Source of the DNA: Atribacterota bacterium
GTDB lineage: Bacteria > Atribacterota > Phoenicimicrobiia > Phoenicimicrobiales > Stramentimicrobiaceae
Assembly: GCA_040774925.1 (NCBI GenBank)
Contig: JAXGTM010000002.1
Span: 1 to 36,965, forward strand
Length of the DNA stretch: 36,965 bases
Direction of reading: 5' to 3'
Within the stretch, counting starts at the first letter, position 1. Each line of letters opens with the position of its first letter. The translations under genes and the position numbers were made by a program. Shown here piece by piece: positions 4,572 to 34,885 of the stretch. The notes beneath the pieces are model-generated. The model was not told where the DNA came from and made no database searches. It saw only the letters and a program-made list of their open reading frames with translations.

Positions 4572-4585
4572 AATAATTTTTCACC

Positions 4586-7424: not shown

Positions 7425-7439
7425 AAATTACTCCTTGGA

Positions 7440-8486
7440 TTAAGCAACCCTTACTAAATATTTTTTAGCTTCTTCTCCTGGCAGTTTGTATCTTATGCTC
7501 TCAACAATCGAAATAATATCTTTTATTTCCATCTCCAGCTGCCAGATATAAGCAATTGTTTGAATAATGCTATGCGGAAATTTTCTGTTTAATTGCCCAA
7601 GCTGTTTGTAAATAAATCTATTTATATGTCTTTCCATATATATATCTGTAGAAAACTCTTCTTTTCCGAACAAAGAGCCATAGTATGAGCCGGATATTAA
7701 ACGATTGAGATTTTCTAAGCTCTTTGTATAACACATTCTTTGCCTATCTTTATAAGACAATTTATCGCCAAAGTTTATTGTATAGTTGAGCAATTCTTCA
7801 GGTGATAGCTGATAAAATTTTTTACCTCTGTATATCCACTGTATATTATACAAATCAGCTAATAAGCCCTCCCATTTTCTTATTAAAGATCTGTCTGTTG
7901 ATAAGAGATTCAATCTTTTTTGTTGGGTAATATTGTAATAGCTGTTATCCAGAACCATTTCGAAACGAAAAAGATTTTCTCTCTTTCCATCAATGAGCGG
8001 TATTACATACTCGAAAAATTCTGTTCCTTCGAGTAGAAATATCAAATCTCTGACAGTTTTTGCTTTAAAGAGTTTTTCAGGAACAATCTCACTATGTTTT
8101 CCTAAAAAAGAGAGTGGCTTCCCTATTTCTCTGGGATTTTCTCCATTAAAAATACTTCTAGCCAGTATTTTTAAATCTCTTATTTCATGTTTCAAATAAA
8201 ATGAACGTACCAGTGTTCGATAATCATCCCTGAAATAGAAGATTAATTTATCGATATTGGCAACCATTTTTTTTATCAGAATATCTTCAATATCCCGTCT
8301 GCTGATTGTTTCAATCGTTATTTCTTCAAAAAGTTTCTGATAGGAAGTGTAATCTTTCAAATAGCCAGCTGCCTCTGGTACAGAGGTCATTTTAAGCATG
8401 TCCAGATAATTCTGCTTATTCAAAAATTCTCTTTCCAGGACTTTTATCTTTGTATTTACGGCCGAAAATAATACGATTCTATCCAT
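7440..8486 (-). CDS. ntpC: V/A-type ATP synthase subunit C (V0 d-type)
   Basis: 348-aa all-helical ORF of the size and N-terminal pattern of the AC39/d family (FSAVNTKIKVLEREFLNKQNYLDML). It lies within the operon and overlaps the upstream gene by 8 nt. Confidence 0.82.
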   Translation of the reverse strand: MDRIVLFSAVNTKIKVLEREFLNKQNYLDMLKMTSVPEAAGYLKDYTSYQKLFEEITIETISRRDIEDILIKKMVANIDKLIFYFRDDYRTLVRSFYLKHEIRDLKILARSIFNGENPREIGKPLSFLGKHSEIVPEKLFKAKTVRDLIFLLEGTEFFEYVIPLIDGKRENLFRFEMVLDNSYYNITQQKRLNLLSTDRSLIRKWEGLLADLYNIQWIYRGKKFYQLSPEELLNYTINFGDKLSYKDRQRMCYTKSLENLNRLISGSYYGSLFGKEEFSTDIYMERHINRFIYKQLGQLNRKFPHSIIQTIAYIWQLEMEIKDIISIVESIRYKLPGEEAKKYLVRVA

Positions 8487-8814
8487 TATCTTCCTTATTC
8501 AGATTGAAAATTCGTCTAATTATTTCTTCAAGAATGTAATCTAAATCTTCTTCAAATTTCTGCTGCATATCCTCTATTATTCTTTTATTCTCAGCTCTAA
8601 GTTCCTTAATTTCCTGTTTTGCTTCCTGTTCTATCTTCTTTTTAATACAATTGCTCTCATCTTCAATCTGTTTCTTATAATTTCTGGTAATTTCCAATTC
8701 CTCTTCTCTAAATTTGCTAGCCAGTTCACGCAATTGTTCTTTCCTGTTCTCATTAATTTTAATTGCCTGATAATCAAGGTTTATCAGGTTTTTAATTATT
8801 TCAATATCTTCCAA
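8479..8814 (-). CDS. Probable V/A-ATPase peripheral-stalk subunit (G/H-like coiled-coil protein)
   Basis: 111 aa, almost entirely charged heptad-like sequence (KEQLRELASKFREEELEITRNYKKQIEDE...). It is the first gene of the operon. TTG start with AAGGAG 7 nt upstream. Assignment rests on size, composition and position only. Confidence 0.55.
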   Translation of the reverse strand: MEDIEIIKNLINLDYQAIKINENRKEQLRELASKFREEELEITRNYKKQIEDESNCIKKKIEQEAKQEIKELRAENKRIIEDMQQKFEEDLDYILEEIIRRIFNLNKEDNG

Positions 8815-9027
8815 AACAGTACTCCTTTTAGAAAGATAAATATTTTTCTATTTCAATTTAATTGTACATTTATATGTCTATAATTTAAATAATTTAACAA
8901 CAATAATTATGAGGTCTAATATTTTTGACCATATACAAAATAAAATATTTTTTATTCCCTTTAAAAGCTGAAACCATATTTAAAATTTTATAAATTAGTT
9001 AGAAGAAATTTTTACTTTTTAAATAGT

Positions 9028-9756
9028 TCAGACACTCTCGGTAAAAACAATAAACAGGGCTACTATGATTCCTGCCACAAAGGTCAATAATGAATGCTTT
9101 TTTTCATGCCCCCTTGCCTCTGGTAACAGATGAGATGCTGACAGATATATTAATACTCCTACCACAAAACCGAGCAGTATTCCCAGGACAGATGTATTTA
9201 GTCTGGAAATAAAAGGATATGCAATCAATGCCCCGAGCGGGGTAGTCATCCCAGAAACTAAAAAGGCAAAGAAAAAAGCTTTTCTTCTGCTAATGTTGCT
9301 TTCTGTTAAAACAGAAAAAGTAATAACACCTTCTGCAAACTCATGAACTACCAGACCTATTCCGGCTAAAAACCCGGTAAGAATTCCATTGCTAAAAGTA
9401 ATAGTATATATTATGCCATCAATAAAAGAATGCAGGGCTATCCCCTCGATAGCTGTAATTCCAAATGCCAGTGATTTCTGTTTGAATTTATATTGAAATA
9501 GTCTATTACTGGAAAACATAAATAAAAAACCTAATAAAGCAGCAAAACCGGCATAAGAGGTCTTTCCCACTGCCTCTGGAAAAACCAGCACCAGGGGTAC
9601 TGTAATCAATATACCTGCAGCAAAACACATAAAATAAGTGTTGGCCCTTTCAGCCAACCCCTTGTTTTTATATATGGTTATTATGCCAAGGGTATTGATA
9701 GTTAAAGCAAACAGGGCAAAAAGGACAATCCAGGCAAATACGCCCAATTCATACAT
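9028..9756 (-). CDS. ZIP-family divalent metal (Zn/Fe) transporter
   Basis: 242-aa polytopic membrane protein with the two ZIP signature helices ALHSFIDGIIY and VVHEFAEGVITF. Confidence 0.85.
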   Translation of the reverse strand: MYELGVFAWIVLFALFALTINTLGIITIYKNKGLAERANTYFMCFAAGILITVPLVLVFPEAVGKTSYAGFAALLGFLFMFSSNRLFQYKFKQKSLAFGITAIEGIALHSFIDGIIYTITFSNGILTGFLAGIGLVVHEFAEGVITFSVLTESNISRRKAFFFAFLVSGMTTPLGALIAYPFISRLNTSVLGILLGFVVGVLIYLSASHLLPEARGHEKKHSLLTFVAGIIVALFIVFTESV

Positions 9757-18898: not shown

Positions 18899-19849
18899 TT
18901 ATACAATTCTTAATGCAAAGACCGGGCAATGTGGTATGCAATAGCCACAGGTCAGGCACAAATTATAATCAACATTAGCCTTACAGTTTCTTATAGACAG
19001 GGCATAGTTTGGGCACACATCGACACAAGTTCCGCATCCCTCACAAAAACTTGAAACAAATAGTTTCTTTCTGGTAAAACTCTCTTGAAATAATTCTTCC
19101 TGGGTAACTTTTTGGTCTTCAAATATTTTTAGGTTTATTTCTAACTCCCTTTGGTTCACCATCCCTATTGAGATAGATTGTATTTCCTCAATATTCCTGA
19201 CAAAACTAATCGCCGTTACTAATTTAGAAAAGAGATAGCCACCTGCCAGGACTTTCATTGCATAGATCCCTTTACTATTTTTATATGCTTTTTTTATTGC
19301 CCCAACCATATCTTCTGGTTGTCCGCCTACGATTCCCAATCCCAGCAGATTAATAATAGGAAAAATAATATCAATTTCTTCTCTTTTAGCAGACTCTTCA
19401 ACTACTTCAACGGCATGTGCAGAAACACCAATAGCTCTTATCAAGCCTTTCTTTTTCAGATCTTTCAGTGCTGATAATGCACCTGCTCTTTTTTGAAAAA
19501 TTAATTTATCTTCCCTTGCTGCATGCAGATGAAAAATATCAATATAATTCCTGTTCAACTCTCGACAGGCTTCTACAACTGCCTCTTCCATCTCCTGATA
19601 AGTAATGGCATGGGATTTACTGGAAATAACTACATCTCCTTGATAACCAGCAAGAGCCTTCTTAATGTAGGGGTAGGTCTGATAAGCCTGTGCAGTGTCT
19701 AGAAAATTAATACCGGAATCCAGCCCTTTCCTTATTATGTCGGCACCTTCATCGAGCGGCATATTTATTTGTAACGGTCCCATAGGTAGAGTCCCAAAGC
19801 ATAGTTCACTAACCCTTATTCCCGTATTACCCAGAACATTATATTTCAT
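18899..19849 (-). CDS. Aldo/keto reductase fused to a C-terminal 2x[4Fe-4S] ferredoxin domain
   Basis: The N-terminal ~260 aa are AKR-like (GNTGIRVSELCFGT, INFLDTAQAY, IDIFHLH). The C-terminus carries two CxxCxxCxxxCP clusters (CEGCGTCVDVCP, CLTCGYCIPHCP). ATG start with GGGAGGAG upstream. Confidence 0.85.
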   Translation of the reverse strand: MKYNVLGNTGIRVSELCFGTLPMGPLQINMPLDEGADIIRKGLDSGINFLDTAQAYQTYPYIKKALAGYQGDVVISSKSHAITYQEMEEAVVEACRELNRNYIDIFHLHAAREDKLIFQKRAGALSALKDLKKKGLIRAIGVSAHAVEVVEESAKREEIDIIFPIINLLGLGIVGGQPEDMVGAIKKAYKNSKGIYAMKVLAGGYLFSKLVTAISFVRNIEEIQSISIGMVNQRELEINLKIFEDQKVTQEELFQESFTRKKLFVSSFCEGCGTCVDVCPNYALSIRNCKANVDYNLCLTCGYCIPHCPVFALRIV

Positions 19850-20166: not shown

Positions 20167-20853
20167 TTATCCATTATTAATACTGTCCAGATAGGTACAG
20201 TAAGCAGAGCCGGTTTCGGTAATAACTATTTCTTCTTCCTGTCTTCGAATAAATTTTAAAAACTTCAATATTTCTAGAATAGCCTCACCTTCTTTTTCAT
20301 CAATAGCCATTTCTCGAACAGTTTCCTGAAAAGATTTTTCTGTAACATAATGTTTTTCATAAATATCATAGAGCACATTTTTACTGTTTGGAACTAAAAG
20401 ATTATCAGCAAGAAGAAATAACCATTTCACATTTTCTTTTTTCTCTTTTTTTAACCGCTCCAGTATCCTGGAAATGTCTTCTTCTCTAAGTTTTTCCTCT
20501 TCTTTCTCCAGATTTATCTTATCAATCCAGGCCATAACTGTTCCAGAAATTATCTCCTGAAATCTCCTCTCATCTTTAAATACATCTGGAATTGTATGAT
20601 GCTTTTGCAGTGATACGGGAGCCATCAGAAGGTTGCTCTTGACCTTTTTATCTAAAAAATGAAAAATGTTTTCTTGATACAAGAAGATAGCACAAAACGC
20701 GGAAACAAAGAATAGAGCAATCTCTGAATTAGTCAACTCTACCCATCCCGCTTTATCAAAGGGCCAGAAAAGTACAGCTAATAACATGGTAAGCAGGCAT
20801 AAAATTCCATAAGGCAGGATAGTCAATAATATTTTGCGTATATGGTTTTCCAT
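20167..20853 (-). CDS. Hypothetical membrane protein (2 TM N-terminus, charged cytoplasmic C-terminal domain)
   Basis: The ORF track opens at TTG 20862; the in-frame ATG at 20853 (MENHIRK...) is preferred. There are two hydrophobic helices, then a Glu/Lys-rich segment and an alpha-helical tail. I recognise no family. Confidence 0.55.
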   Translation of the reverse strand: MENHIRKILLTILPYGILCLLTMLLAVLFWPFDKAGWVELTNSEIALFFVSAFCAIFLYQENIFHFLDKKVKSNLLMAPVSLQKHHTIPDVFKDERRFQEIISGTVMAWIDKINLEKEEEKLREEDISRILERLKKEKKENVKWLFLLADNLLVPNSKNVLYDIYEKHYVTEKSFQETVREMAIDEKEGEAILEILKFLKFIRRQEEEIVITETGSAYCTYLDSINNG

Positions 20854-20894
20854 TTTTCTCAAACCATTAATTTTTATTTTTCTTAAATACAGAA

Positions 20895-21617: not shown

Positions 21618-21694
<77 letters not shown>

Positions 21695-21723: not shown

Positions 21724-22263
21724 TCATAACATCGGCAATGAAACCACAGATTTGATTCTAACAGCTAAAAAAGTTGCTGTTATTACTTTTAAACAATCAC
21801 CAGGTAAAAAGGGTACAATCCCTACCATGACAGCATCTTTTATTCCAATTTTGGCAAATAATATTAGTTGAGTTACTCCTGTAAGATATATAATTATCAT
21901 TCCCAAAATTCCTATTGAGAGGTATACATATACATTCATATTTTTTATGTTTTCAATTAACATACCAACTATATATGAAGATAGAACAAAGCCGATTAAA
22001 AACCCTCCGGTTGGACCCAACAATACCCCAGGACCAGCTCTAAACCCTGAAAATACTGGCAATCCGACTGTTCCGACAAATATATATATTAACTGGCTGA
22101 AAGCACCTAATTTGCCACCTAAAACCATTCCAGATAAAATAGTAAACATATTTTGCATACTTATTGGAACCATACCGATGGGAATTGTAACAAAAGCACC
22201 AACGGCAGTTAGTGCCGCAAAAAGAGAGACAAGTATCATCTGTCTGGTATTAATTTTTTTCAT
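21724..22263 (-). CDS. bioY: Biotin transporter BioY (ECF S-component)
   Basis: FAALTAVGAFVTIPIGMVPISMQNMFTILSGMVLGGKLG...GLPVFSG is the characteristic BioY N-terminal block. About 6 TM. The ORF track opens at TTG 22269; the ATG at 22263 is preferred. Confidence 0.9.
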   Translation of the reverse strand: MKKINTRQMILVSLFAALTAVGAFVTIPIGMVPISMQNMFTILSGMVLGGKLGAFSQLIYIFVGTVGLPVFSGFRAGPGVLLGPTGGFLIGFVLSSYIVGMLIENIKNMNVYVYLSIGILGMIIIYLTGVTQLILFAKIGIKDAVMVGIVPFLPGDCLKVITATFLAVRIKSVVSLPML

Positions 22264-22322
22264 TTGCAAGTCTTATATTTTCGCTTTCTTAAATATTTTC
22301 TTACGAAATTTTTTCCTTATAC

Positions 22323-23570
22323 TTATAATTTTTTATGTATGTAGCTGGATAATTTTCCTAGACAATGCACATAGCTTCCATATTCGTTGTCATACCAACC
22401 AAAAATGGTTAAATGGGTAATAGGGATATTTATCATCTTGGAGCTGTTTCCCATTCCTATCTCCCGGAGCATTTCAGGATCAAAACTGATAAAACTCGTT
22501 CTTGTATGAGTAGCATGTCCCTCTATGGTAACAGCGGCAAGCTTTCCTTTTAAATCAGACGATACATTCTGATTAGTGCTGAAACATAAGAGCTCTTTTT
22601 GTGGTCCTTGTGCAGCTTCCTGATATATATCATTTATAAGCTCTCTGTTTACAACAGAATTTCCCTTTTTATCTAATCTGCTGTGAAAGGTTAGATTCAA
22701 TATAATTAGTGAGACTGTATCAGTAGGGATTCGAACCGAATCTGCCATAAAACCAATTCTTTTTACTTCCGGTAATACTTTTTCCAGTGCACTTGCAGCT
22801 CCTGTAGTAGAAAGAATTATATTATTAAAGACCATCCTATTTTTTCTCAGATCTGTGTCACCAGCACCGGGCAGGGAATCGAGCACTCTTTGACTGTTAG
22901 TTGCAGCATGTATGGTAGACAATGATGCTGTTAAAATATTTCTGGTCTCTTCTCTCTCAAGCAAAGGCTTAACCATATGTGCCAGAGCTGTAGTTGTACA
23001 TGAAGCAGCAGAAACAATTCTATGTTTATCCTGAATAAAGGAAAAATGGTTTATACCATAAATAAGAGTGGTACAATCTTCCGGTAATTTTTTCGACTTA
23101 TCTTTTATTTTGAAAGGCGCACTATTAATAACTTTCTCAGCTCCAGCAAGAATATGTCCCCTAAGAGAACCTCTGTCATTATCTTCAAAAACACCAGGAT
23201 CGTTAAAAGCGCCTGTGGAATCAACAACTAATTTAACCCCGTATTCCTTCCAGTTGATATTTTTTGGATTCCTATCTTTGCAGAGAATTTTTACAGGTTT
23301 TCCAAATATTTCTAAAAGATTCTTCTCTTCATCAATAATTTTTATACCATTTTGTGCTTTTATTCCAAATAAGAATTTTTCCATAGGACCATAAGTCGAA
23401 TCAGACCCAATAAGATTAGCAATGTCTGTGAGACTCTTTCCTACAGAACGGCCAGTATTTATAACAAAGCTATCAAAATAATTTTCATGCAATTGATACC
23501 ATAGGGTTAATTTCCCAATTCTTCCCAATCCGTTAATGCCCAAACAACTTTTTTTATCTTTTAAATCCAA
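22323..23570 (-). CDS. Atypically long glyceraldehyde-3-phosphate-dehydrogenase-family oxidoreductase
   Basis: 415 aa. Rossmann motif GINGLGRIGKL. Catalytic SAASCTTTALAHMVKPL (Cys191 codon 22998-23000). TIHAATNSQRVLD (catalytic His plus Thr), DLRKNR, STTGAASALEKVLPE, SVRIPT and the C-terminal WYDNEYG are all present. There are several insertions relative to ~335-aa GAPDHs. The TTG start directly abuts the TGA of the upstream gene. Confidence 0.85.
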   Translation of the reverse strand: MDLKDKKSCLGINGLGRIGKLTLWYQLHENYFDSFVINTGRSVGKSLTDIANLIGSDSTYGPMEKFLFGIKAQNGIKIIDEEKNLLEIFGKPVKILCKDRNPKNINWKEYGVKLVVDSTGAFNDPGVFEDNDRGSLRGHILAGAEKVINSAPFKIKDKSKKLPEDCTTLIYGINHFSFIQDKHRIVSAASCTTTALAHMVKPLLEREETRNILTASLSTIHAATNSQRVLDSLPGAGDTDLRKNRMVFNNIILSTTGAASALEKVLPEVKRIGFMADSVRIPTDTVSLIILNLTFHSRLDKKGNSVVNRELINDIYQEAAQGPQKELLCFSTNQNVSSDLKGKLAAVTIEGHATHTRTSFISFDPEMLREIGMGNSSKMINIPITHLTIFGWYDNEYGSYVHCLGKLSSYIHKKL

Positions 23571-26500
23571 TCAAAGTGCCCCTCTTTCATTAAAGTAGGT
23601 GATTTGCTCCAGACCAATAGCATGATGACCCTTATAGATATTCCCAAGATAGGCATCTATAGCAATTTTATCACCTGTTTTAAATTCATTATTATTAATA
23701 AAACATCTTTTTTCCTTTTCTAATACTGTTAAATGCTTACAATTTACTATACAAATCTTCCCAAGCTGTGCTGCTGTAACAGCAGCATGAGATGTAACTC
23801 CTCCGCGTGCAGTCAAAAGTCCATCACAATCAAATATCATTTCTATATCATCGGGCACGGTATCTGGTCTGATTAATATCTTATTATCCTCAGGGTATCT
23901 TTCTGTAAGCATATTTATATCATCCAGATTAAAAGCTACCCGCCCATTTATTGCCCCTCTTCCTATACCAATTCCCATTCCAACAAGATAATTGAGGATT
24001 TCAGGGCTGGTAAAAATAGGGGTCTTCTCTTCTTCTTTTAACACATAGGGCCTGGTCTGTAATATATGTAAATCCTTTTTATGTTTAGATTTAAAGGTGA
24101 ATTCGATCTCTTGGTGCTCATATCCTTTTTCATAGATTAACTCCCTTGCTAATTTTAACAACCTCTGATAGATCTGGGGAAATTGTACTTCCAGAGATTC
24201 TCCTTTAAGGTGTGGGAATTTTTCATTTTGAAATTCAGATATTGGCAGGGTATAGACCAGTCCGGAAACAATATCCTCTCCCTGACTGCAAATAGTAAAA
24301 TCACCGTACAAGGTAACCTCAGGACTTTTTTCAAATGGAATTTTAGTAAAAATAACTCCTGCACCTGATCTGGTATTAATATTTCCTAAAACCATCTCCT
24401 GTACTATTACAGCTGTTCCCCATTCTTCGGCAATCTGAAGTTTTTTGCGAAATATCTGAGCCCTATCGTTGTACCAGGATTGAAATACAAACAATATAGC
24501 CTGAATCAATTGCTTGAAAGGATCTTCTTCTAATACAATCCCATGTTTTAACAACAATGTTTTGTAAGCAAAAGCAATCTCTTTCATCTGTTCTTTGCTA
24601 AAGTCTTTCTTTTCTTTAACCTGGTGAATTTTCTTATGCTTAAGAATAAGTTTATCAAATTCATCACGCTCAATCCCATTAGCCATTCCCCAGTTTTGTA
24701 ATAATCTTCTATATGAGTCCCATGCTGCCCAACCATATTTTGAAACTTTGCTTAAGCTTTCAGCAATCTCATCATTCATTCCTATGTTTAAAATGGAATC
24801 CATCGCTCCCGGCATAGGAATAACCGTACCAGAGCGAACTGCTAACAATAGTGGATTTTTAGGATCACCAAGTTTTTTCTTTGTAATTCTTTCTAATTCC
24901 ACAAGTTTCGCTCTAATCATCCCCAAAATGGCCTGATACATTTCCGGAAATTCCATGATGGCTTTTCTGTCTCTAAACCATTCTGTTGTTAAGACAAATC
25001 CTGGCGGTATGGGAAATTTGTAAGAGTACAATTTTTTTAAATAGTATGCTTTAGCTCCCAAAAATATCTGATTATCCACTTTGGGATTGGGTTTATGCAA
25101 AGAAGTTGATAATAATCTTGGATTATAATTTAACAGCATATGTATAACATCTGGCTTTAACCTTCCCAGCATATTCCTCAGTGTACTTAAGATTTTGGAA
25201 ACATAGTTATCCAGACTTTGCACTAAGAAGGACGATACTATCATCTCTCTGTAAAATTCTTCTGATCTTCTGTAAATAATGTGTTCACGGGAAACATTGT
25301 TTTTATTGCTGCTCTTTAATTTCTGCTCTATGATAGTCTTCAGTGAAGGATTGAATGGGAGTATGTAATAATTATCAATTATTTCTTTTATATTAAGAGT
25401 AATAAAAGAAAAAATATTTACAAACTGTTCCATTGAAAAAGTAGTGGTTTTAAAACTATAGTTTAGCATTTCTAAATGTGAATTAAAATTCTCATTGATA
25501 ATGCCATTTAGACTTAGTCCCTCTTTAAAAAGATCAAGAATTTTGGCTGCACTATGAAAGCCGTCAATAGTCATATAATCAAGATTTCTCTGGCTAATCA
25601 GCTTATGTATAAGATAATCGACAAGCTTCTCTAAACGCAATATTAATCCCATGGCTTCAAATTTTTTTTCATAGTATTGACCATACATGGATGGAATTCC
25701 AGATGCTATATGGCGTTTGAAATATAAACTCTCCTGGGCTTCACTTCTAGCAGGCTCCAGAATAATTTTTTTCAAATCAGAAATCATGCTGTAGACCAGT
25801 TTTATGGCAATATCATAATTGTTTTTTTTAATAAATCTTTTTAATTTATCTATTTCTTTGATAGAAAAAAAGTTTGATTGCAATAAATCGTGTGATATAA
25901 ACTTGTAATCAAGAGTGTATTTATGTTTTAAAAGTTGATATAATTCGATTAAATAGGCAACACGCTGGGTGACATCTGTTCTAACATTACTGATATGCGC
26001 TAAAGACTTTTGTATTTCATTTATGTCTTCTTCCAGAATATCTTCGGGACTCATTTTTAATCTATCACAAAGTGAATTAACAGTATGATGTATCTCATTA
26101 AACCATTCTTCTGAAGCAGGCAACTCATTTTGAACATCTCTTGGAAGGTATTTTAGAAGAGGCTGGCGGTTTTTATCATGCCAATAAAAAAAGATTTTTC
26201 TAATTAATTCAATCTGTGAGTTATTACTCTCTGTATGCACCTGTTTCCTTAAAAAATGAATCAGTCTGTCTTCACCATAGGAGAGTTTGTCAATTTCTGT
26301 GGATATTTCTCTAATCTTCCCTTCTGCACCAATGGTACTGAAATAGACCGGGAAAAGATTAAGCAACTGCTTTATTAAAACATAATTTGATCTGATATCA
26401 CTATTGAGCAGCTGGCTAATATCTCTTTGAAAAAGATCTTCATCACGTATAAGCACTCCACCTACTTTCAAATTAACAATTAAAGCTGATATTAATTTGC

Positions 26501-27686
26501 TGCTATATTTCGGTGAACATTTAATCAGGTTGAGCCAGACTCTAATCATTTTTAAATGATTATTATCAGTTTGAACCTGCCATTCGTCATTAATTTTCAT
26601 TTCGCTGGGATAGATAAACCCGAATTTAATGAGATATTCAATAAATATATCTATATATATCTGGTCTTCTGTTTGAAATATCTTCTTCCCTAAACTCAAT
26701 ATACATTCCAGTATTTTTTCGATACTTTCCTCTTTTAATCTATTGAAAAGAGTGAAAGTATTGTTAAGAAAATTATCTAAAGATAATACTTTTAGTTCAT
26801 TATTGGTAAACTTTGAATACAGATGAGATAATTCTACTAACAAGAGATCTCTAGAACCCATCATTACCGTTTCCAATAAATAGTAAAGAAAATAAACGCT
26901 TTCCTGAACCGGGGCATCTTTTTCTATTAAATCTGTTAATTTATCCAGGAATTCTTTAAAACCATCTATGCCCGTCAAATCTTTCCAGGTTTGAGCAGCA
27001 GATAACTCTTTTTGTATTTTGTTAATCAGTTCGATTTTTCTATTGGAAATATTAATTATACTGTCAGGATATCTATCAGAAAAATGTTTATCCTTCATCT
27101 GACACCATTCCTGAAAATTCAATTGCTTTTGCCACATATCAATATTTTCACTCAAAGAGTACTCGAGAAGTTTTTTTATTCTTATTGAACAGTCATTTTG
27201 TTTAATCAGCTCTATGGGGAACTTTTTAAGCAGGCCGGAGGAGTGCACCATAATATCAGAATTATTTAATAAAACATTCTCTAAAATAGTTACTATATCT
27301 TCACAATAGATATTGAGCTCTGTATTTATATCATCACTTTGTGTCAATTCTTGAACAAATTCTAACAGTGTGTTTAATAGACGCCACCTGCTCTGCCTGT
27401 TTAGATCTCTATTTAACTGTTCGCCAAATAACCACAGAATAGCTTTTAAAGCCCTGCTTGCTTCCACATGCGCTTTGTAAAACCAGATATCATTCAGAGC
27501 TATTTCTCTGAGGCCATCATGTATCTTCTTTATTTTGTAAGGTTTTTGATATATTTTTATTAAAAGATTTTCCATCCTCTGGTTTATGCCAAAATGAGAT
27601 GAAGATATATTCAAAAGCCATTTATTTTCTTCTGATAACTCTTTTTCAAGAGTTATTTGTATTTCACTTTTTTGAGGTATTTCCAT
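23571..27686 (-). CDS. Large PPDK-related dikinase-like protein: unknown ~868-aa helical N-terminal region, ATP-grasp nucleotide-binding domain and phosphohistidine swivel domain, no PEP/pyruvate domain
   Basis: Uninterrupted 1371-aa ORF with an ATG start 11 nt after the birA stop. The last ~503 aa (nt ~23574-25082) are collinear with the N-terminal two-thirds of pyruvate,phosphate dikinase, including RGGVTSHAAV (His1300 codon 23787-23789). The protein ends ~70 aa after that His. Confidence 0.88.
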   Translation of the reverse strand: MEIPQKSEIQITLEKELSEENKWLLNISSSHFGINQRMENLLIKIYQKPYKIKKIHDGLREIALNDIWFYKAHVEASRALKAILWLFGEQLNRDLNRQSRWRLLNTLLEFVQELTQSDDINTELNIYCEDIVTILENVLLNNSDIMVHSSGLLKKFPIELIKQNDCSIRIKKLLEYSLSENIDMWQKQLNFQEWCQMKDKHFSDRYPDSIINISNRKIELINKIQKELSAAQTWKDLTGIDGFKEFLDKLTDLIEKDAPVQESVYFLYYLLETVMMGSRDLLLVELSHLYSKFTNNELKVLSLDNFLNNTFTLFNRLKEESIEKILECILSLGKKIFQTEDQIYIDIFIEYLIKFGFIYPSEMKINDEWQVQTDNNHLKMIRVWLNLIKCSPKYSSKLISALIVNLKVGGVLIRDEDLFQRDISQLLNSDIRSNYVLIKQLLNLFPVYFSTIGAEGKIREISTEIDKLSYGEDRLIHFLRKQVHTESNNSQIELIRKIFFYWHDKNRQPLLKYLPRDVQNELPASEEWFNEIHHTVNSLCDRLKMSPEDILEEDINEIQKSLAHISNVRTDVTQRVAYLIELYQLLKHKYTLDYKFISHDLLQSNFFSIKEIDKLKRFIKKNNYDIAIKLVYSMISDLKKIILEPARSEAQESLYFKRHIASGIPSMYGQYYEKKFEAMGLILRLEKLVDYLIHKLISQRNLDYMTIDGFHSAAKILDLFKEGLSLNGIINENFNSHLEMLNYSFKTTTFSMEQFVNIFSFITLNIKEIIDNYYILPFNPSLKTIIEQKLKSSNKNNVSREHIIYRRSEEFYREMIVSSFLVQSLDNYVSKILSTLRNMLGRLKPDVIHMLLNYNPRLLSTSLHKPNPKVDNQIFLGAKAYYLKKLYSYKFPIPPGFVLTTEWFRDRKAIMEFPEMYQAILGMIRAKLVELERITKKKLGDPKNPLLLAVRSGTVIPMPGAMDSILNIGMNDEIAESLSKVSKYGWAAWDSYRRLLQNWGMANGIERDEFDKLILKHKKIHQVKEKKDFSKEQMKEIAFAYKTLLLKHGIVLEEDPFKQLIQAILFVFQSWYNDRAQIFRKKLQIAEEWGTAVIVQEMVLGNINTRSGAGVIFTKIPFEKSPEVTLYGDFTICSQGEDIVSGLVYTLPISEFQNEKFPHLKGESLEVQFPQIYQRLLKLARELIYEKGYEHQEIEFTFKSKHKKDLHILQTRPYVLKEEEKTPIFTSPEILNYLVGMGIGIGRGAINGRVAFNLDDINMLTERYPEDNKILIRPDTVPDDIEMIFDCDGLLTARGGVTSHAAVTAAQLGKICIVNCKHLTVLEKEKRCFINNNEFKTGDKIAIDAYLGNIYKGHHAIGLEQITYFNERGAL

Positions 27687-27697
27687 TTTCTCTTGTT

Positions 27698-28714
27698 TTA
27701 AATCCTCCCCTGCTCTTCCTTACCTGTTAATGTAGAGATAGTCCCTGATATTATCTCTTTGATCTTTTCATCTTTCGTCTTAATAATCAGAGCCCCTTTT
27801 TCGTTTATATCGATGGCTCTTCCTGTAATAATTTTATTTCCAGAGTTAACCTCAACATACTTTCCTATGATATTGTTATAGGATTTCCATTCTTCCAATA
27901 TTTCAGAAAAACCCTTTTCTTTAAAAACCCAGTAAGACTTCTCCAATTCACTACATAAATAATTTAATAATTTCAGACGTGAAACTGAATGGCCGACAGT
28001 TTCCTTTAAAGAAATAGAATCGTTACTGATGTGTCGGGGTAATTGAAAAGAACAATTATTTACATTTATCCCTATTCCAACTATAACCCATCTAATGTTT
28101 CTTCCTTCTGTGCTCATCTCTGTAAGTATACCACATACTTTTCTGCCACTTATTAAAATATCATTGGGCCATTTTATTTGCAATTCTATTTTAGGTAATA
28201 GTTTCTCAATTGCCTTCACCACTGCCACAGCTGTCATGAGGGTAATAAAAGACATATGAGAGGGGTCAAGTTCTGGGTAGAGTACAACTGAAAGCCATAT
28301 GCCCCCGGATGGGGAAAACCATTTTTTTCCTGATCTTCCTTTACCTACACTCTGCTTCTCAGCAATAACGATAGTACCTTCCGGTATTTTATTGGTATTT
28401 TCACGTAACAGTTCGCTTGCGATACTGTTGGTAGAGGTCAATTCGGTAAAATAAAAAATGTTTTTCCCAATATATCTCGTAGTTAAGTTTCTTTTAATTT
28501 CAAAAGGCAGCAAGATATCCGGACGATTGATTATACGATAACCACCCTGCCCATCAATACAAAATTCGTATCCCAATTCTTTTAATTGAAGTATCTGTTT
28601 TTTAATGTCTTGAATAGATGTTAAAAGTATTTCACTCAATTTTTCTTCTTTTATAAAAGAATCTTCTGACAGATGATCTATTATGGGGAAATTATTTTCA
28701 AGACCATTTTTCAT
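27698..28714 (-). CDS. birA: Bifunctional biotin--[acetyl-CoA-carboxylase] ligase / biotin operon repressor BirA
   Basis: N-terminal winged-HTH (LSEILLTSIQDIKKQILQLKELGYEFCIDGQGGYRI). Catalytic core with the biotin-binding loop QSVGKGRSGKKWFSPSGG and KWPNDILISGRKVCGILTE. C-terminal SH3-like tail. The ORF opens at GTG 28717; the ATG at 28714 is adjacent and preferred. Confidence 0.92.
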   Translation of the reverse strand: MKNGLENNFPIIDHLSEDSFIKEEKLSEILLTSIQDIKKQILQLKELGYEFCIDGQGGYRIINRPDILLPFEIKRNLTTRYIGKNIFYFTELTSTNSIASELLRENTNKIPEGTIVIAEKQSVGKGRSGKKWFSPSGGIWLSVVLYPELDPSHMSFITLMTAVAVVKAIEKLLPKIELQIKWPNDILISGRKVCGILTEMSTEGRNIRWVIVGIGINVNNCSFQLPRHISNDSISLKETVGHSVSRLKLLNYLCSELEKSYWVFKEKGFSEILEEWKSYNNIIGKYVEVNSGNKIITGRAIDINEKGALIIKTKDEKIKEIISGTISTLTGKEEQGRI

Positions 28715-28759
28715 CACTTTATTACATAATCCTCAGCACTTGCAATATTAAGAAGATAT

Positions 28760-29380
28760 TTATTCTATTTCTTTCAGTTTGTTTATAATCATTTCCGTTA
28801 CTAATTCAAGATGCTCAGCCGTTTTTACAAAATCGAGACAATCGATTGGAATAGACAAAATAGGGCAGAGAGAAAAATCCTTTACCCATTTACTGTATAA
28901 TCTGTTAAGCTGTTTCAGATAGTCTCTGGAAATACTCTTTTCATAATCTCTACCACGAAGAGCTATTCTTTGCTCTAGGGTCTCTATGGATGCTTCCAGA
29001 TACACAATAAGGTCAGGCGGAGAAAGATAGCTTATCATATTGTAAAATAACTCTCTGTAGCTTTGGTAATCTCGTTTTTCCATCAAACCTTGTTCATATA
29101 AATTTCTGGCAAAGATATCAACATCTTCATAAATACTGCGATCCTGAACAACTGAATTGGGATCCTGTAATATTCTTTGGTGGTGTTGAAAACGTTTAGA
29201 AAGAAAAAATACCTGTAAGTGAAAACTCCACTTTGACATATCTTTGTAAAAGTCTTCTAAATAGGGATTATTTTCTACCACTTCATAAAATGCTTTCCAG
29301 CCTAATTTTTCACTCAGAACTCTTGTCAGGCTTGATTTACCGCTTCCGATATTTCCAGATATAATAATGAATTTTTTCAT
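28760..29380 (-). CDS. Deoxynucleoside kinase (dAK/dGK/dCK family), second of a tandem pair
   Basis: P-loop IIISGNIGSGKSSL, plus YEVVENNPYLEDFY, QDRSIYED and RIALRGRDYE (LID). The ORF track opens at TTG 29434, overlapping the upstream gene by 23 nt. The ATG at 29380 (MKKFIIISG...) gives the usual short N-terminus and is preferred. Confidence 0.85.
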   Translation of the reverse strand: MKKFIIISGNIGSGKSSLTRVLSEKLGWKAFYEVVENNPYLEDFYKDMSKWSFHLQVFFLSKRFQHHQRILQDPNSVVQDRSIYEDVDIFARNLYEQGLMEKRDYQSYRELFYNMISYLSPPDLIVYLEASIETLEQRIALRGRDYEKSISRDYLKQLNRLYSKWVKDFSLCPILSIPIDCLDFVKTAEHLELVTEMIINKLKEIE

Positions 29381-29411
29381 TTTTTTCTGGTCATCTACTC
29401 TTTCCAATTCC

Positions 29412-30038
29412 CTATTCTCTATCTTTCTGCTCAATATTTTGACATATTATATTAAAGTCTTTACGGTTATCTACAAAATCCATTCCATCAGTATTAATTA
29501 CGAGGAGTTTGGTTCTGGTAAAATTACTCTGATCACTGAAATAATTTTCATAATGATTATTAAGATTTTCCATATATTGGTAAGAAATGTTCTGTTCAAA
29601 TGAACGAGCTCTTTGTCTTATCCTCTTCATCAATAGTTCTGTACTAGATTTTAAATAAATAATTATATCAGGGGACGGGATATCACGACTTATTATTCCA
29701 TACAGATGTTCATACATTTCTAATTCATTACCGGAAAGTGTCAGGTGGGCAAAAATTCGGTCTTTAGCAAACATATAATCCGAAAATGACAATTGTCTGA
29801 AAAGGTCCTGTTGAGCAGCCTTTACCTGCTGGTCATATCGACTTAATAAAAAGAAAATCTGAGTTCGAAAAGCATATTCTGCGATATTGTCATAAAAATG
29901 TGTTAAGAAAGGGTTTTCTTCAACTACTTCTAACAGAGCCCTTGCATTATATCTCTTACTTAGTTGGAGAACCAGGCTGGTTTTCCCTGCTCCGATAGCT
30001 CCTTCAACAGCAATATACTTACTTTGAAATGAATACAT
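29412..30038 (-). CDS. Deoxynucleoside kinase (dAK/dGK/dCK family), first of a tandem pair
   Basis: P-loop IAVEGAIGAGKTSL, plus LEVVEENPFLTHFY, SDYMFAKD and RIRQRARSFE (LID). ATG start. Confidence 0.88.
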   Translation of the reverse strand: MYSFQSKYIAVEGAIGAGKTSLVLQLSKRYNARALLEVVEENPFLTHFYDNIAEYAFRTQIFFLLSRYDQQVKAAQQDLFRQLSFSDYMFAKDRIFAHLTLSGNELEMYEHLYGIISRDIPSPDIIIYLKSSTELLMKRIRQRARSFEQNISYQYMENLNNHYENYFSDQSNFTRTKLLVINTDGMDFVDNRKDFNIICQNIEQKDRE

Positions 30039-31895: not shown

Positions 31896-32115
31896 TAAGA
31901 AACCTCCTTTAGATCTATTAATTTTTGCATACTTTAAAATAAATAATTATCAATCATTAGTATCTTTTTAATAGATTTAAACGTTTAGCATATACTTTTA
32001 CCGAAAAATTTTATTGAAAAATCAGATAATTAATGCCCCAACAAATAATTATAGCAGTAGTGTTTTAAAGATTAATATAATGGGATTTTTAAATATTTTA
32101 TCACCTCTCTTTTTT

Positions 32116-32625
32116 CTAAGGTTGAAAACTGTACACCTGTGCAATCTCCTTACCCTTGGCATTACAAAAAACAGCTTTGTTTTTAATATCAATCAATAAC
32201 AAACGTATATCACACCAACCTTTAATACCAAATAGGAATGTTTTGCTGTATTTGAACCTCTGAGAAGCTTGAATAGCTTCATCAGAAAAACCATTTTCAC
32301 CAATAATAATTCCATTAATAGTATGTGACATGACCTCTAAAGAAGGATTTGTTAATTCTAAAGCTGCCTTAACAATAAATTGAGAAAAATCGTTGATATC
32401 TCCTACTTCTACATATCTATCGAATCCGTTCACCAATATGATTTCTCTTTCCTGATAATGATCAATACGAATATTTTTGGTAAGTACACTGCGGTAATGC
32501 TCTGTAACAGAAAAAGCATAGATATCAACTTTACTATTCAGAATATGCTTGTTTATTTCTACATTATAATGCAACTGATATCTTTTTGACAATTCTTTAA
32601 GATATTCTGACAATTTTAGTTGCAT
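32116..32625 (-). CDS. Hypothetical protein (no recognisable family)
   Basis: 169-aa ORF with an ATG start and mixed alpha/beta-looking, non-repetitive composition. It is flanked by long AT-rich spacers. Coding status is inferred from ORF length in a stop-rich AT-rich background. Confidence 0.5.
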   Translation of the reverse strand: MQLKLSEYLKELSKRYQLHYNVEINKHILNSKVDIYAFSVTEHYRSVLTKNIRIDHYQEREIILVNGFDRYVEVGDINDFSQFIVKAALELTNPSLEVMSHTINGIIIGENGFSDEAIQASQRFKYSKTFLFGIKGWCDIRLLLIDIKNKAVFCNAKGKEIAQVYSFQP

Positions 32626-32962
32626 TTCTTTTTTCTATCCTTTTTATATTATAAATTTACTATATTTAATTATCCTCTTATTATTTTAACTATTTCAATT
32701 TTATTACATTAACTTTTATATTGCAATAACAAAGATGTCTACGTTTGTACCTGCATTAAAACCAGCGAATAAAAATGACATCAGAGATAATTGTCTATTA
32801 TTTTTTGGTAACTATTTTTAAATACTCATTTTTAATTATGCTCTGGAATATTATTTTTAACTAAAACACTTTAAGACATTATCAGTACTATTGTTGTTGT
32901 TATTTTCGTTAAAATATTATTGATAAAAATATATTGTCTTTTTCAGTCACATCTTAATTCTC

Positions 32963-32990
32963 TTGACATTTTTAATTCCTATGTTATATT
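32963..32990 (+). promoter_or_regulatory. Near-consensus sigma70-type promoter (TTGACA, 16-nt spacer, TGtTATATT extended -10)
   Basis: TTGACA at 32963-32968. TG at 32982-32983. TATATT at 32985-32990. It points toward the FmdE-domain gene, whose ATG is ~225 nt downstream. Confidence 0.4.
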
Positions 32991-33215
32991 GAAACATACT
33001 TTAAATGTTATATTTATTATAAACGTAACACTATTATATCTTATTTATATTTTATTTATTGGTATGATTTAAATTGATGGATTAAAATAAATTACTTGTA
33101 TTAACTTACTATTCTTTAGACTATTGGAATAATAGAAGATATTCCTGTACAAATCTTTGTCATTTCAACATCACACAAAAATACATATTTGCAATAATGG
33201 GGGTTACAAAAATAA

Positions 33216-33653
33216 ATGATAAAACTAACAATAGACCGCAATAGTATAGATGATATGCTGGAGAGAGGAATTAAGCTACATGGCCATTCGGGACCTTATC
33301 TTAACCTGGGGATCAAGATGGGATTATTGGCTCTTGAGTTGCTGGATGTAAAAGGGTATTTTGATTTGTCTACAGAGGTAGAGATGGAATATCGCAGACC
33401 AATGTCCTGTTTAATCGATGGTTTGCAAATCTCTACAGGCTGCACCATGGGAAAGGGAAATATCCATATAAAAGATAATCCTGGTTCTATTAATGTTCTT
33501 TTTAAATCAGACAATAAAATGTTATTTGTCAACTTGAAGCCAGAAATAAAGAACTTGATAGATTTCGAAAAGGAAAGTTGTGAGGATCTGGCTGAAAATA
33601 TTTTGAGAATGCCTGATAATCAGATATTCGATTATAAAATAGAAAGCATATAG
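33216..33653 (+). CDS. FmdE-domain protein (stand-alone, without C-terminal zinc ribbon)
   Basis: 145 aa. LHGHSGPYLNLGIKMG and CLIDGLQISTGCTMGKGN are the conserved FmdE/FwdE-family blocks. Confidence 0.78.
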   Translation: MIKLTIDRNSIDDMLERGIKLHGHSGPYLNLGIKMGLLALELLDVKGYFDLSTEVEMEYRRPMSCLIDGLQISTGCTMGKGNIHIKDNPGSINVLFKSDNKMLFVNLKPEIKNLIDFEKESCEDLAENILRMPDNQIFDYKIESI

Positions 33654-33904
33654 GTATTTATTTTTCAGATTTTATATTTAATAATATCTCAAATATTGAA
33701 TAATCTATTTTTTTAATATTCTACATTGTATCCATAAAATGGTAAAATCTAAGATTAAATTTTGTTTAGATTATTCTTAAAAATATTGTCCTTTAAACTC
33801 TTAATTTAACAGCTTTTCATATTTATATAAAGTAAATTATTAAATATTTCTATTTTTAATAATTTAAAAGTTGTTAATAATTTGTAAAAACTTGATATCA
33901 AATA

Positions 33905-34885
33905 TCAGACATCTCTTATTCGGGTAAGCTCTTTGTTCACTATAGTGCCAGGTATCTTGCCATTCAAAACATCCACAATAGCCTGAGCTGTTATCTCCTT
34001 ATAATATTGATATGATTCTTTTGTAAAGAATGCAGCATGCGGGGTAACTATAACGTTATCCAGCTTTAGTAAAGAATTGTCATCGTTAGGTGGCTCCTTC
34101 TCTAATACATCTAATGCAGCACCCGCAATAGTTCCATTCTTTAAAGCATTAAATAAATCATCTTCGTTTATTACTCCCCCTCTGGCTACATTTATTATGA
34201 CAGATGTTTTTTTCATGGCTTCCAATTCATTTTTTGCAAAACGATGTCTAGTTTCAGGAATTAATGGTGTATGAAGAGATAAATAGTCAGATTCCTTTAA
34301 TAATGTTTGGAAATCAACCAACTTTACCATATCATCTTTAGATTCTTTTACGTAAGGATCATGAGCAATTACAGAAAAACCCATGCATATTGCTCTCTTT
34401 GCAACTTCTCTGGCAATTTTCCCATAACCAAAAAGTCCTAAGGTTAACTTATTCAGCCGGGTTAAATGTGGCATTGATTGAAAGTTCCATATCTTTTTGG
34501 TTTTTATCATGTCATTGTATTGCACAATTCCTCTAGCAAAAGAGAGAATGAGAGCTATAGTATGTGTAGCTACCTCATCAGTACAATACTCTCCTGAATT
34601 AGTTATAATTATTCCATTTTCAGTTGCTGACTTCAAATCGATACCGTCTACACCTATACCATAACGGGCAATTACTTTACAATTTTTTAAATTATCCATA
34701 ACTTTTTTGGTTAAAGGAGCAAATTGACTTATTAATGCATCAGCCGAATGGCAATGTTCAATGACCTCTTCTTCTGTCTTACATTGAAATATCTTTAAAT
34801 CATGTGGTATCTGTTTTAAGATATTTTTTTCTATTTCTATTGAATCATGTGAGCAATCAGTAAACATGATCTGTCTTTTTTTCAT
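33905..34885 (-). CDS. D-isomer-specific 2-hydroxyacid dehydrogenase (PGDH/CtBP-like)
   Basis: NAD-binding LGLFGYGKIAREVAKRA, plus LHTPLIPETRH, INVARGGVINEDDL and the catalytic His in VTPHAAF. The ORF opens at TTG 34903, with in-frame ATGs at 34885 and 34867. I chose 34885, but the start is uncertain. Confidence 0.85.
   Translation of the reverse strand: MKKRQIMFTDCSHDSIEIEKNILKQIPHDLKIFQCKTEEEVIEHCHSADALISQFAPLTKKVMDNLKNCKVIARYGIGVDGIDLKSATENGIIITNSGEYCTDEVATHTIALILSFARGIVQYNDMIKTKKIWNFQSMPHLTRLNKLTLGLFGYGKIAREVAKRAICMGFSVIAHDPYVKESKDDMVKLVDFQTLLKESDYLSLHTPLIPETRHRFAKNELEAMKKTSVIINVARGGVINEDDLFNALKNGTIAGAALDVLEKEPPNDDNSLLKLDNVIVTPHAAFFTKESYQYYKEITAQAIVDVLNGKIPGTIVNKELTRIRDV

Follow-up and report, generated by a model that had tools for sequence, protein, structure and literature searches.

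A barrel-less relative of pyruvate, phosphate dikinase with a predicted all-helical domain of orphan fold is paired with a GAPDH paralogue in anaerobic bacteria

In a stretch of 36,965 nucleotides from an Atribacterota bacterium (contig JAXGTM010000002.1 of assembly GCA_040774925.1), which we analysed as a whole and call the window, one long open reading frame (ORF) joins half of a pyruvate, phosphate dikinase (PPDK) to a large N-terminal region, and the next gene encodes a long paralogue of glyceraldehyde-3-phosphate dehydrogenase (GAPDH). We refer to the two products as the long dikinase and the long GAPDH; their coordinates are collected in Table 1. What is new here is a widespread, uncharacterised family with a putative acceptor domain of orphan fold and a dedicated GAPDH paralogue. 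We consider it possible, rather than probable, that the long dikinase is a PPDK-derived, AMP-forming phosphotransferase that relays a phosphoryl group through a histidine and acts with its dedicated reductase at the node of 3-phosphoglycerate, 1,3-bisphosphoglycerate and glyceraldehyde 3-phosphate (GAP).

Judged by profile matches and alignment, residues 869–1371 of the long dikinase are an intact PPDK-type half, made up of an ATP-grasp domain together with the swivel domain that carries the phosphocarrier histidine. In Pfam, PPDK_N matched residues 924–1144 (E = 3e-24) and PEP-utilizers matched residues 1266–1347 (E = 2e-16). In NCBIfam, the PPDK equivalog model TIGR01828 scored 337.6 bits against a cut-off of 843.45, and its best stretch covered model positions 13–334 of 865. 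When we searched PDB sequences with phmmer, residues 875–1178 aligned to about 17–306 of Clostridium symbiosum PPDK (1KBL/1DIK) and residues 1233–1354 to 389–508 of the same enzyme; the swivel domain also aligned to the isolated domain 2fm4. The two proteins align throughout this half, including the PPDK-specific helical subdomain, with no domain inserted between the ATP-grasp and His domains. Among the PPDK residues retained are Lys22, Arg92 (in VRSG), the MPGxMD loop, the EIEFTF and LQTR segments, equivalents of Glu323, Gln335 and Arg337, and the TSH motif of GGxTSHAAV. The predicted phosphocarrier, His1300, sits in LLTARGGVTSHAAV. This histidine is kept in 17 of the 18 aligned family members that reach the motif (P0211, a nineteenth, is unaligned there), the exception being the hemerythrin-fused P0215, which has tyrosine in its place. 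Models of other dikinases scored below their cut-offs as well: the PEP synthase models gave 61.3 bits against 739.75 (TIGR01418) and 71.7 against 598 (NF005057), the truncated-PPDK model NF004531 gave 244.1 against 456, and the model of rifampicin phosphotransferase (RPH), NF041857, gave 24.9 against 999. The PigC and RedH models likewise stayed far under the TIGR01828 score.

The long dikinase ends at the point at which the linker to the TIM barrel starts in PPDK. The Pfam model of that barrel, PEP-utilizers_C, had no match in the long dikinase in a scan reported down to E ≤ 1, and none in the neighbouring genes or in the other scanned ORFs of at least 100 amino acids (aa) of the 37-kb window. 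Because the barrel is absent and the ORF ends 71 residues past His1300, the swivel domain of the long dikinase is tethered on one side only. Thus, unlike PPDK, the protein has no C-terminal barrel, carries an 868-residue all-alpha domain ahead of the ATP-grasp domain and is paired with a GAPDH. The initial annotation of this stretch, made from the letters and their translations, had read the last ~503 residues as PPDK-like, had quoted a series of PPDK-like motifs, had seen no TIM barrel in the protein or its neighbours and had predicted that PPDK_N and PEP-utilizers would be present and PEP-utilizers_C absent. The motifs are all found in the translation, the three Pfam models behaved as predicted, TIGR01828 and the C. 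symbiosum alignment agree on the PPDK-like part, and the absence of a barrel is borne out both by the Pfam scans and by the all-alpha models described below.

We next asked of these results whether the protein could still be a pyruvate/phosphoenolpyruvate (PEP) dikinase, its barrel replaced by the helical domain or supplied in trans, or an artefact of a normal PPDK. Public databases do call members of the family 'pyruvate phosphate dikinase' or 'PEP/pyruvate-binding domain-containing protein'. Judged by our membership tests, these names are wrong or empty: PEP-utilizers_C is missing from the protein, its neighbours and the scanned ORFs of the window, and the score is far under the TIGR01828 cut-off. 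To our knowledge, no all-alpha domain that binds PEP or pyruvate has been described. Moreover, canonical full-length PPDKs occur near the module itself (locus L003) and near its GAPDH partner (L104). The canonical PPDK at L003 coexists with the long dikinase, which is therefore not the PPDK of that cell. At L104 (positions 5–9175), the order is pgi, canonical PPDK (894 aa), PPDK regulatory protein (Kinase-PPPase), long GAPDH and pgm (phosphoglucomutase), with no long dikinase. A pyruvate/PEP dikinase is thus very improbable. Whatever the acceptor is, the name 'pyruvate phosphate dikinase' is wrong for hundreds of database entries, and metabolic reconstructions of uncultured anaerobes that draw on these entries would credit the genomes with a PPDK too many.

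An artefact is contradicted by the size and uniformity of the family. When 1.84 billion representative proteins were scanned exhaustively with HMMER, 391 representative clusters matched, and all full-length matches were 1335–1540 aa long; the helical domain was therefore never met outside the fusion to half a PPDK. A search with the N-terminal 868 residues alone as query returned 747 clusters, of which 120 were listed, and all but the truncated fragments among these 120 were proteins of about 1360 aa with PPDK_N and PEP-utilizers. One protein, P0001, is 100% identical to the long dikinase and has the same Pfam content. Relatives with an ORF of about 1360 aa are present in at least 479 GTDB species genomes. 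We checked 83 related loci (3 looked up, and the best 80 from the GTDB species genomes), and 75 of them hold one unbroken ORF of 1323–1468 aa. On these grounds we rejected an assembly or fusion artefact. The initial annotation had allowed that homologues might expose the fusion as one; they instead form a conserved, full-length family.

The family is spread across many anaerobic lineages. Among the best 80 GTDB loci, relatives from Atribacterota are 60–79% identical to the long dikinase, and the other hosts are Geobacteraceae, Desulfobacteraceae (including strain NaphS2), Anaerovoracaceae and other Clostridia, Syntrophomonadaceae, Cloacimonadota, Calditrichales, Bacteroidales, Dehalococcoidia and CSSED10-310. 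Judged by these best matches alone, Atribacterota is almost certainly the phylum of the window as well. The named hosts among the listed loci are strict anaerobes throughout, and one of the hosts, Sinanaerobacter chloroacetimidivorans BAD-6 (L049), is in culture. In members from outside Atribacterota, the helical domain has a median identity of 36.5% to its counterpart in the window, the PPDK half one of 53.9% and the long GAPDH one of 57.9%.

The N-terminal 868 residues had no match in Pfam even at E ≤ 1 and none in NCBIfam or PADLOC. From an alignment of 31 family members (A1), we made an AlphaFold2 (AF2) model of residues 1–868, with a mean predicted local distance difference test score (pLDDT) of 84.5 and a predicted template modelling score (pTM) of 0.79. 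This model comprises about 48 helices and a single beta-hairpin, and no barrel is therefore hidden in the region. Since distant family members can be aligned from about residue 300 onward, the core, residues 300–868, was also modelled on its own. When compared with the PDB by Foldseek, the model of residues 1–868 matched generic HEAT/ARM alpha-solenoids alone, such as CRM1 and importin-beta (TM ≤ 0.19, best E = 5e-4), and the model of the core matched nothing better than E = 0.067 (TM ≤ 0.19). RPH was not among the Foldseek matches listed for the N-terminal domain. A profile of 26 N-terminal sequences, searched against PDB sequences, found just designed helical repeats (E 0.04–0.15). Residues 300–868 are thus confidently predicted to form a compact all-alpha domain whose fold has no solved counterpart in the PDB. 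Two candidates were rejected along the way: a hidden TIM barrel or other known fold in residues 1–868, by the sequence scans, the PDB profile and Foldseek of both AF2 models, and a helical barrel of the PEP carboxylase type, as the model has one beta-hairpin only. The description of this region in the initial annotation, as apparently all-helical and without a recognisable family, therefore survives both the sequence searches and structure prediction: the models are all-alpha apart from the hairpin, and neither a barrel nor a characterised family emerged.

Conservation within the helical domain is concentrated in its core. Across the same 26 sequences, which come from several phyla and are about 36% identical, 77 columns are invariant, and most of them fall within residues 300–868. 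Four motifs can be recognised: D415-x-D-L-F-Q-R421; F445-P-x-Y-x(3)-I-G-A-E-G456, followed by R459, T463 and D466; the basic motif DRLIHFLRKQVHTESNN, which runs from D473 to N489; and a Gly/Pro-containing motif from Y655 to F676 that forms the tip of the hairpin. Arg, Lys, His, Ser and Glu are abundant among the invariant columns (R421, R459, R480, K481, H484, K657, R658, H659, S666, E673, K675 and R813), with Lys657, Arg658, His659, Ser666, Glu673 and Lys675 belonging to the hairpin loop. In the AF2 model, the strands of the hairpin are residues 651–657 and 666–672, and its tip, residues 656–667, is modelled with low pLDDT, as a mobile loop would be. In a paralogous subfamily at 27–34% identity, the motifs still have their Arg, Lys, His, Ser and Glu residues. 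We infer that the conserved basic motifs form a putative site that binds an anionic ligand or acts on it, and residues 300–868 are presumed to provide the site of the second substrate, whether phospho-acceptor or phospho-donor. Judged by these residues, the helical domain has the look of a domain with an active site and not of a passive scaffold. The core of about 570 residues is thus a confidently predicted fold without a PDB counterpart that has an obvious candidate active site.

Two groups of distant relatives show variations on this architecture. P0215 (L164:1166–5788) and P0211 carry an N-terminal hemerythrin (HHE cation-binding) domain. In P0215, TSYAAL replaces the catalytic His motif, the hairpin motif is degraded and there is no GAPDH neighbour; this protein may be a non-catalytic sensor derivative. 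The paralogous subfamily, of about 1460 aa (L165 and L169–L172; P0268, P0276, P0296 and P0286), has an extra N-terminal extension of about 110 aa and retains both the N-terminal motifs and the catalytic His. Its genes lie near two-component systems, a NiFe hydrogenase, a sulfatase or cytochrome P460. Neither the ~1460-aa nor the hemerythrin-fused subfamily has a recurring neighbour, GAPDH included. As the ~1460-aa subfamily has the motifs but no GAPDH neighbour, the fusion can apparently work without a dedicated partner.

In the window, the TTG start codon of the long GAPDH abuts the TGA stop codon of the long dikinase, and a GAGGGG ribosome-binding site lies within the 3' end of the dikinase gene. 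From this arrangement we predict that the two genes are co-transcribed and translationally coupled; scans for promoters and terminators around the operon gave counts no higher than chance. The initial annotation had suggested that homologues be examined for co-occurrence of the N-terminal region with the GAPDH-like neighbour, and the association proved strong whichever of the two genes was taken as the starting point. The long GAPDH lies immediately downstream of the dikinase, on the same strand and with gaps of 4–188 bp, at 59 of the 64 dikinase loci that have at least 1.4 kb of downstream DNA. For the reverse direction, we fetched 80 metagenome loci with the long GAPDH as query, 53 of which have at least 4.4 kb upstream. 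The dikinase adjoins the long GAPDH at 50 of these 53 (directly upstream and full-length at 45, one gene away at 2 and convergent downstream at 3) and is missing from the other 3; where one gene intervenes, it is a canonical GAPDH. The pairing holds even where the N-terminal region is only 23–29% identical (L166–L168).

No other gene belongs to the module. When the ORFs of 163 loci, drawn from many phyla, were all clustered, the dikinase and the long GAPDH were the only recurring families (136 and 133 loci). The next commonest neighbours were BioY (21 loci), BirA (20) and deoxynucleoside kinase (16), all of them in Atribacterota only, and the birA and bioY flanks seen in the window are therefore lineage noise outside the module. 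The order in the window is birA, dikinase, long GAPDH, bioY (21724–28717). At two other Atribacterota loci (L006:6001–10702 and L007:3067–7793), the dikinase lies directly between birA and bioY with no GAPDH paralogue, an arrangement that suggests that the partner has been lost or has moved in some members of this phylum.

Some neighbourhoods place the module beside genes of central carbon metabolism. At L168, tpi and pgk are transcribed divergently from a series consisting of gap (334 aa), long dikinase (1422 aa) and long GAPDH (429 aa). Phosphoglycerate kinase (PGK), a GAPDH with Asp32, the long dikinase and the long GAPDH of one organism thus lie inside 9 kb (L168:1662–10564). A canonical-length GAPDH lies beside the module at 12 further loci; the copy at L022 is unusual in matching Pfam weakly and lacking the Asp32 motif. 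At L003 and L057, the long GAPDH is missing and a canonical-length GAPDH is adjacent instead. The module therefore probably belongs to glycolysis or gluconeogenesis, with the triose-phosphate node as its genomic link.

The long GAPDH has the features of a working enzyme. It is about 30–35% identical to solved GAPDHs, exceeds canonical GAPDH by about 80 residues owing to four insertions, and scored 284.7 bits with the type I GAPDH model TIGR01534, under the cut-off of 367.2. Aligned to Thermus thermophilus GAPDH (1vc2), it retains the Rossmann motif INGxGRIG, Cys149, His176 (His221 in the long GAPDH), Thr179, Arg195, TGAA, Arg231 and WYDNE. In an alignment of 107 family members, the catalytic hallmarks are invariant in all 107, including the Ps and Pi anion-site residues (Thr179, Arg195, Thr208-Gly209 and Arg231). 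With all of these kept, the long GAPDH should form or reduce the acyl phosphate of a phosphorylated substrate of the three-carbon type, and the parsimonious choice of substrate pair would be GAP and 1,3-bisphosphoglycerate. A conserved HTRT motif in the long GAPDH, considered as a candidate phospho-acceptor site, aligns by eye with the canonical xSS(T/I) segment that precedes the WYDNE strand and is probably not a new motif.

The coenzyme site departs from the type I enzymes. In NAD-specific GAPDHs, Asp32 binds the adenosine ribose, and its loss accompanies the use of NADP(H) in anabolic GAPDHs; Bacillus subtilis GapA and GapB are such a pair, one catabolic and NAD-type, the other anabolic and NADP-type. 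The position of Asp32 is Thr39 in the window protein and is Val, Ala, Thr, Ile or Leu, never Asp, in 107 of 107 family members; it is followed by an invariant glycine (Gly40) and, in 106 of 107, by arginine (Arg41). The canonical-length GAPDHs beside the module mostly have Asp32. As in the GapA/GapB-type pairs, the long GAPDH thus coexists with an Asp32-bearing canonical GAPDH at several loci, and, unlike type I GAPDH, it falls under the TIGR01534 cut-off, has four insertions and never has Asp32. The pattern points to a catalytically complete, phosphorylating GAPDH with an NADP-type signature.

The initial annotation had read the protein as an ATP-driven His-relay phosphotransferase whose acceptor would be specified by the N-terminal region; the sequence analysis supports that reading, and the GAPDH module extends it. 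These observations suggest a mechanism. As in PPDK, the ATP-grasp domain would pyrophosphorylate or phosphorylate His1300 with release of AMP, and the swivel domain would carry the phosphoryl group to the basic site of the all-alpha domain (residues 300–868), which would stand in for the TIM barrel. The acceptor there would be 3-phosphoglycerate, giving the acyl phosphate 1,3-bisphosphoglycerate, and this product would be handed directly from the dikinase to the long GAPDH and reduced with NADPH to GAP. The net result would be a gluconeogenic route that is independent of PGK and more strongly driven; the reverse direction would be possible too. PEP synthase and PPDK, which are used instead of a reversal of pyruvate kinase, offer one analogy, and the pairs ProB/ProA, ArgB/ArgC and aspartokinase/aspartate-semialdehyde dehydrogenase offer another. 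Together with PGK/GAPDH, the latter are pairs of a kinase and an acyl-phosphate reductase. By analogy with them, a putative ATP-dependent phosphotransferase is encoded with an NAD(P)H-dependent, Cys-based reductase of the GAPDH type and a labile acyl phosphate would be handed over; the proposed enzyme differs in being a His-relay dikinase that would convert ATP to AMP, not a kinase that transfers phosphate directly and converts ATP to ADP. The more specific claim, that the pair is a '3-phosphoglycerate dikinase' with an NADP-type GAPDH and bypasses PGK in energy-limited anaerobes, is doubtful on the present evidence. In the full-text literature, we found no paper on the long dikinase family or on any 'phosphoglycerate dikinase'; the one match to the latter phrase was a rice proteomics paper, which is irrelevant.

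The pair might also run in the opposite direction: the long GAPDH would oxidise GAP to 1,3-bisphosphoglycerate, and the dikinase would take the acyl phosphate onto His1300 and make ATP from AMP and pyrophosphate (PPi), serving, in the manner of PPDK at the pyruvate kinase step, as a PPi-dependent substitute for PGK by which energy-limited anaerobes would gain more energy from glycolysis. In many anaerobes PPDK works in the direction of ATP formation, and all of the named hosts are strict anaerobes. Moreover, the ATP-grasp half resembles that of PPDK, down to its helical subdomain and MPGxMD loop, and not that of PEP synthase or RPH; a passage of PMC5371819 describes PPDK as ATP-forming in bacteria and protozoa. 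By a rough estimate from textbook free energies, a reaction of the phosphate/PPi type would be near equilibrium, and the reverse reaction, in which 1,3-bisphosphoglycerate, AMP and PPi yield ATP, is therefore a live variant. By the same estimate, however, formation of ATP from the acyl phosphate would not be strongly favourable. The loss of Asp32 throughout the family, with Gly-Arg after it, points instead to NADP(H) and an anabolic role, and the second GAPDH beside the module, usually with Asp32 and thus of the NAD type, would serve glycolysis. We regard the ATP-forming direction, and with it the PPi-dependent PGK substitute, as improbable.

Several observations weigh against a phosphotransferase at the 3-phosphoglycerate node. 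PGK itself adjoins the module at L168, which speaks for a parallel path and not for a replacement, and the need of the cell for a parallel route is argued from thermodynamics alone. The NADP(H) preference is deduced from a single sequence position. The long GAPDH is absent from 5 of the 64 dikinase loci, and the ~1460-aa and hemerythrin-fused variants retain motifs without having a GAPDH neighbour. In the models, the 868-residue helical, solenoid-like domain is much bigger than the usual site for a small molecule and looks like a scaffold for protein interactions, its sole Foldseek matches being weak ones to HEAT/ARM proteins. Finally, VadK, the sole characterised PPDK without a TIM barrel, has been reported as a regulatory kinase (PMC13400623).

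The main rival explanation, which the initial annotation had not considered, is a VadK-like regulatory kinase. Such a protein would autophosphorylate on His1300, its solenoid would bind other proteins, and no small-molecule acyl phosphate would be made; it would control the long GAPDH or triose-phosphate flux by phosphorylation or sequestration, perhaps under the influence of redox or O2 signals. VadK (Rv1127c) of Mycobacterium tuberculosis has no barrel, undergoes Mg-ATP-dependent autophosphorylation on its catalytic His, as established by mass spectrometry and a His422Ala mutant, and binds methylcitrate-cycle enzymes and tunes flux (PMC13400623). Like VadK, NF004531 and PRK05878, the long dikinase is derived from PPDK and has the ATP-grasp and His domains without a barrel. 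The solenoid-like N-terminal domain with its weak HEAT/ARM matches, the hemerythrin sensor domain at the N terminus of some distant members and the two-component systems that adjoin the distant subfamily at some loci would all suit regulation. By contrast, VadK has about 490 aa (about 490–534 aa in the truncated-PPDK family), has no extra domain, is actinobacterial and is proposed to regulate the methylcitrate cycle, whereas the long dikinase adds a conserved 868-residue N-terminal domain and a GAPDH partner. Its better fit to full-length PPDK than to NF004531, whose cut-off it missed (244 against 456 bits), suggests that the barrel was lost independently and the protein is an independent derivative. 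Both the dense set of invariant Arg, Lys, His, Ser and Glu residues and the hairpin loop, which is rich in Gly and Pro, have a catalytic and not a scaffold-like look, and a strict, translationally coupled 1:1 operon that is kept across phyla would more typically encode an enzyme pair or complex. P0215, which has no catalytic His, may be a degenerate offshoot. On balance, a purely regulatory kinase appears unlikely.

A phosphotransferase could also act on an unrelated acceptor, such as another metabolite, a polyphosphate or glycan polymer, or a xenobiotic, as do RPH, alpha-glucan, water dikinase (GWD), HpeHI and PigC, with the long GAPDH performing a different, linked step. With new substrate domains, dikinase modules have repeatedly been turned to other acceptors (PMC4844700, PMC12167813, PMC13553574), and by analogy the long dikinase fits this wider logic, in which a cassette of ATP-grasp and swivel-His domains is combined with varied acceptor domains. 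RPH, HpeHI, CreHI and PpsAB also combine ATP-grasp, swivel His and a second-substrate domain that is not a barrel, and are AMP-forming (PMC4844700, PMC12167813); in RPH, as here, the His domain is at the C-terminal end. However, the order in RPH is ATP-grasp, substrate domain and His, its rifampicin-binding substrate domain is unrelated and sequence similarity is very low, and the RPH/HpeHI group acts in xenobiotic or aromatic metabolism, in contrast to the central-metabolism context of the long dikinase. GWD and PWD are dikinases of about 1400 aa with a large N-terminal acceptor-binding region and a His relay (PMC13553574). In GWD, however, the His domain lies ahead of the nucleotide-binding domain, which is C-terminal, and carbohydrate-binding modules are found at the N terminus; Pfam detected no carbohydrate-binding module or starch-related domain in the long dikinase.

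The distant subfamily, with its variable contexts and no GAPDH neighbour, would be compatible with an acceptor of another kind, and the fold of the acceptor domain, having no PDB counterpart, gives no clue. Against it stand the two-way linkage to a GAPDH paralogue with intact Ps and Pi anion sites, the recurrence of the module beside canonical gap, pgk, tpi, pgi, ppdk and pgm, and the absence of carbohydrate-binding, antibiotic-resistance or defence signatures in Pfam, NCBIfam and PADLOC. We consider an unrelated acceptor quite unlikely. A role in a defence system was considered separately and rejected, as neither the long dikinase nor the long GAPDH matched the PADLOC-DB models at E ≤ 0.01.

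If the proposed reaction at the 3-phosphoglycerate node is true, it would add a new enzyme to lower glycolysis and gluconeogenesis, which are among the best-studied parts of metabolism, and it would explain how energy-starved anaerobes drive or harvest the step between 3-phosphoglycerate and 1,3-bisphosphoglycerate. The hosts, among them Atribacterota, syntrophs, reducers of sulfate and of metals, and Dehalococcoidia, dominate sediments and digesters. The family also provides a widespread, independent case, beside the recently described VadK, of a PPDK module re-used after loss of the barrel. With two soluble proteins and a cultured host, the system is directly testable.

Table 1. Features of the long dikinase and long GAPDH genes, in window positions.
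Feature	Position	Strand	Basis or remarks
Long dikinase ORF	23571..27686	-	1371 aa, ATG start, TGA stop
Variable helical arm, aa 1–299	26790..27686	-	AF2 all-helical; few invariant columns
Conserved core of the predicted orphan all-alpha domain, aa 300–868	25083..26789	-	AF2 pLDDT 86.4, pTM 0.87
Invariant basic motif DRLIHFLRKQVHTESNN, aa 473–489 (Arg480, Lys481, Gln482, His484)	26220..26270	-	Family alignments
Beta-hairpin, aa 651–676, loop YxKRHIAxGIPSMYGxYxExKF	25659..25736	-	AF2 and alignments
PPDK-type ATP-grasp nucleotide-binding domain, ~aa 869–1215	24042..25082	-	Pfam PPDK_N, TIGR01828, PPDK alignment
Phosphohistidine swivel (PEP-utilizers mobile) domain, ~aa 1229–1355	23622..24002	-	Pfam PEP-utilizers, PPDK alignment
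His1300 codon, predicted phosphocarrier (GGVTSHAAV)	23787..23789	-	Aligns with His455 of C. symbiosum PPDK
Long GAPDH paralogue, 415 aa	22323..23570	-	Pfam Gp_dh_N and Gp_dh_C; TTG start
Catalytic Cys191 of the long GAPDH (= Cys149), codon	22998..23000	-	Aligned to 1vc2

The rest of the window holds genes outside the module. Two ORFs on the reverse strand, at 32116–32625 (169 aa) and 20167–20862 (231 aa), had no Pfam or NCBIfam match. A stretch at about 32–34 kb (32000–34000) is low in GC, at 0.27 compared with about 0.34 elsewhere. A complete operon for a V/A-type ATPase occupies 155–8814 on the reverse strand and encodes subunits D, B, A and E, the c proteolipid, I and C/AC39, together with small unassigned ORFs. 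A protein of 316 aa (18899–19849, reverse strand) joins an aldo/keto reductase domain to a C-terminal double 4Fe-4S ferredoxin domain. Directly downstream of bioY lies a tRNA-Pro gene with anticodon CGG (21618–21694, reverse strand), the sole Rfam/ARAGORN match in the window. Upstream of birA, two tandem deoxynucleoside kinase paralogues of 224 and 208 aa (28760–30038, reverse strand) have ORFs that overlap by 23 nucleotides, and this tandem arrangement is kept in related Atribacterota loci.

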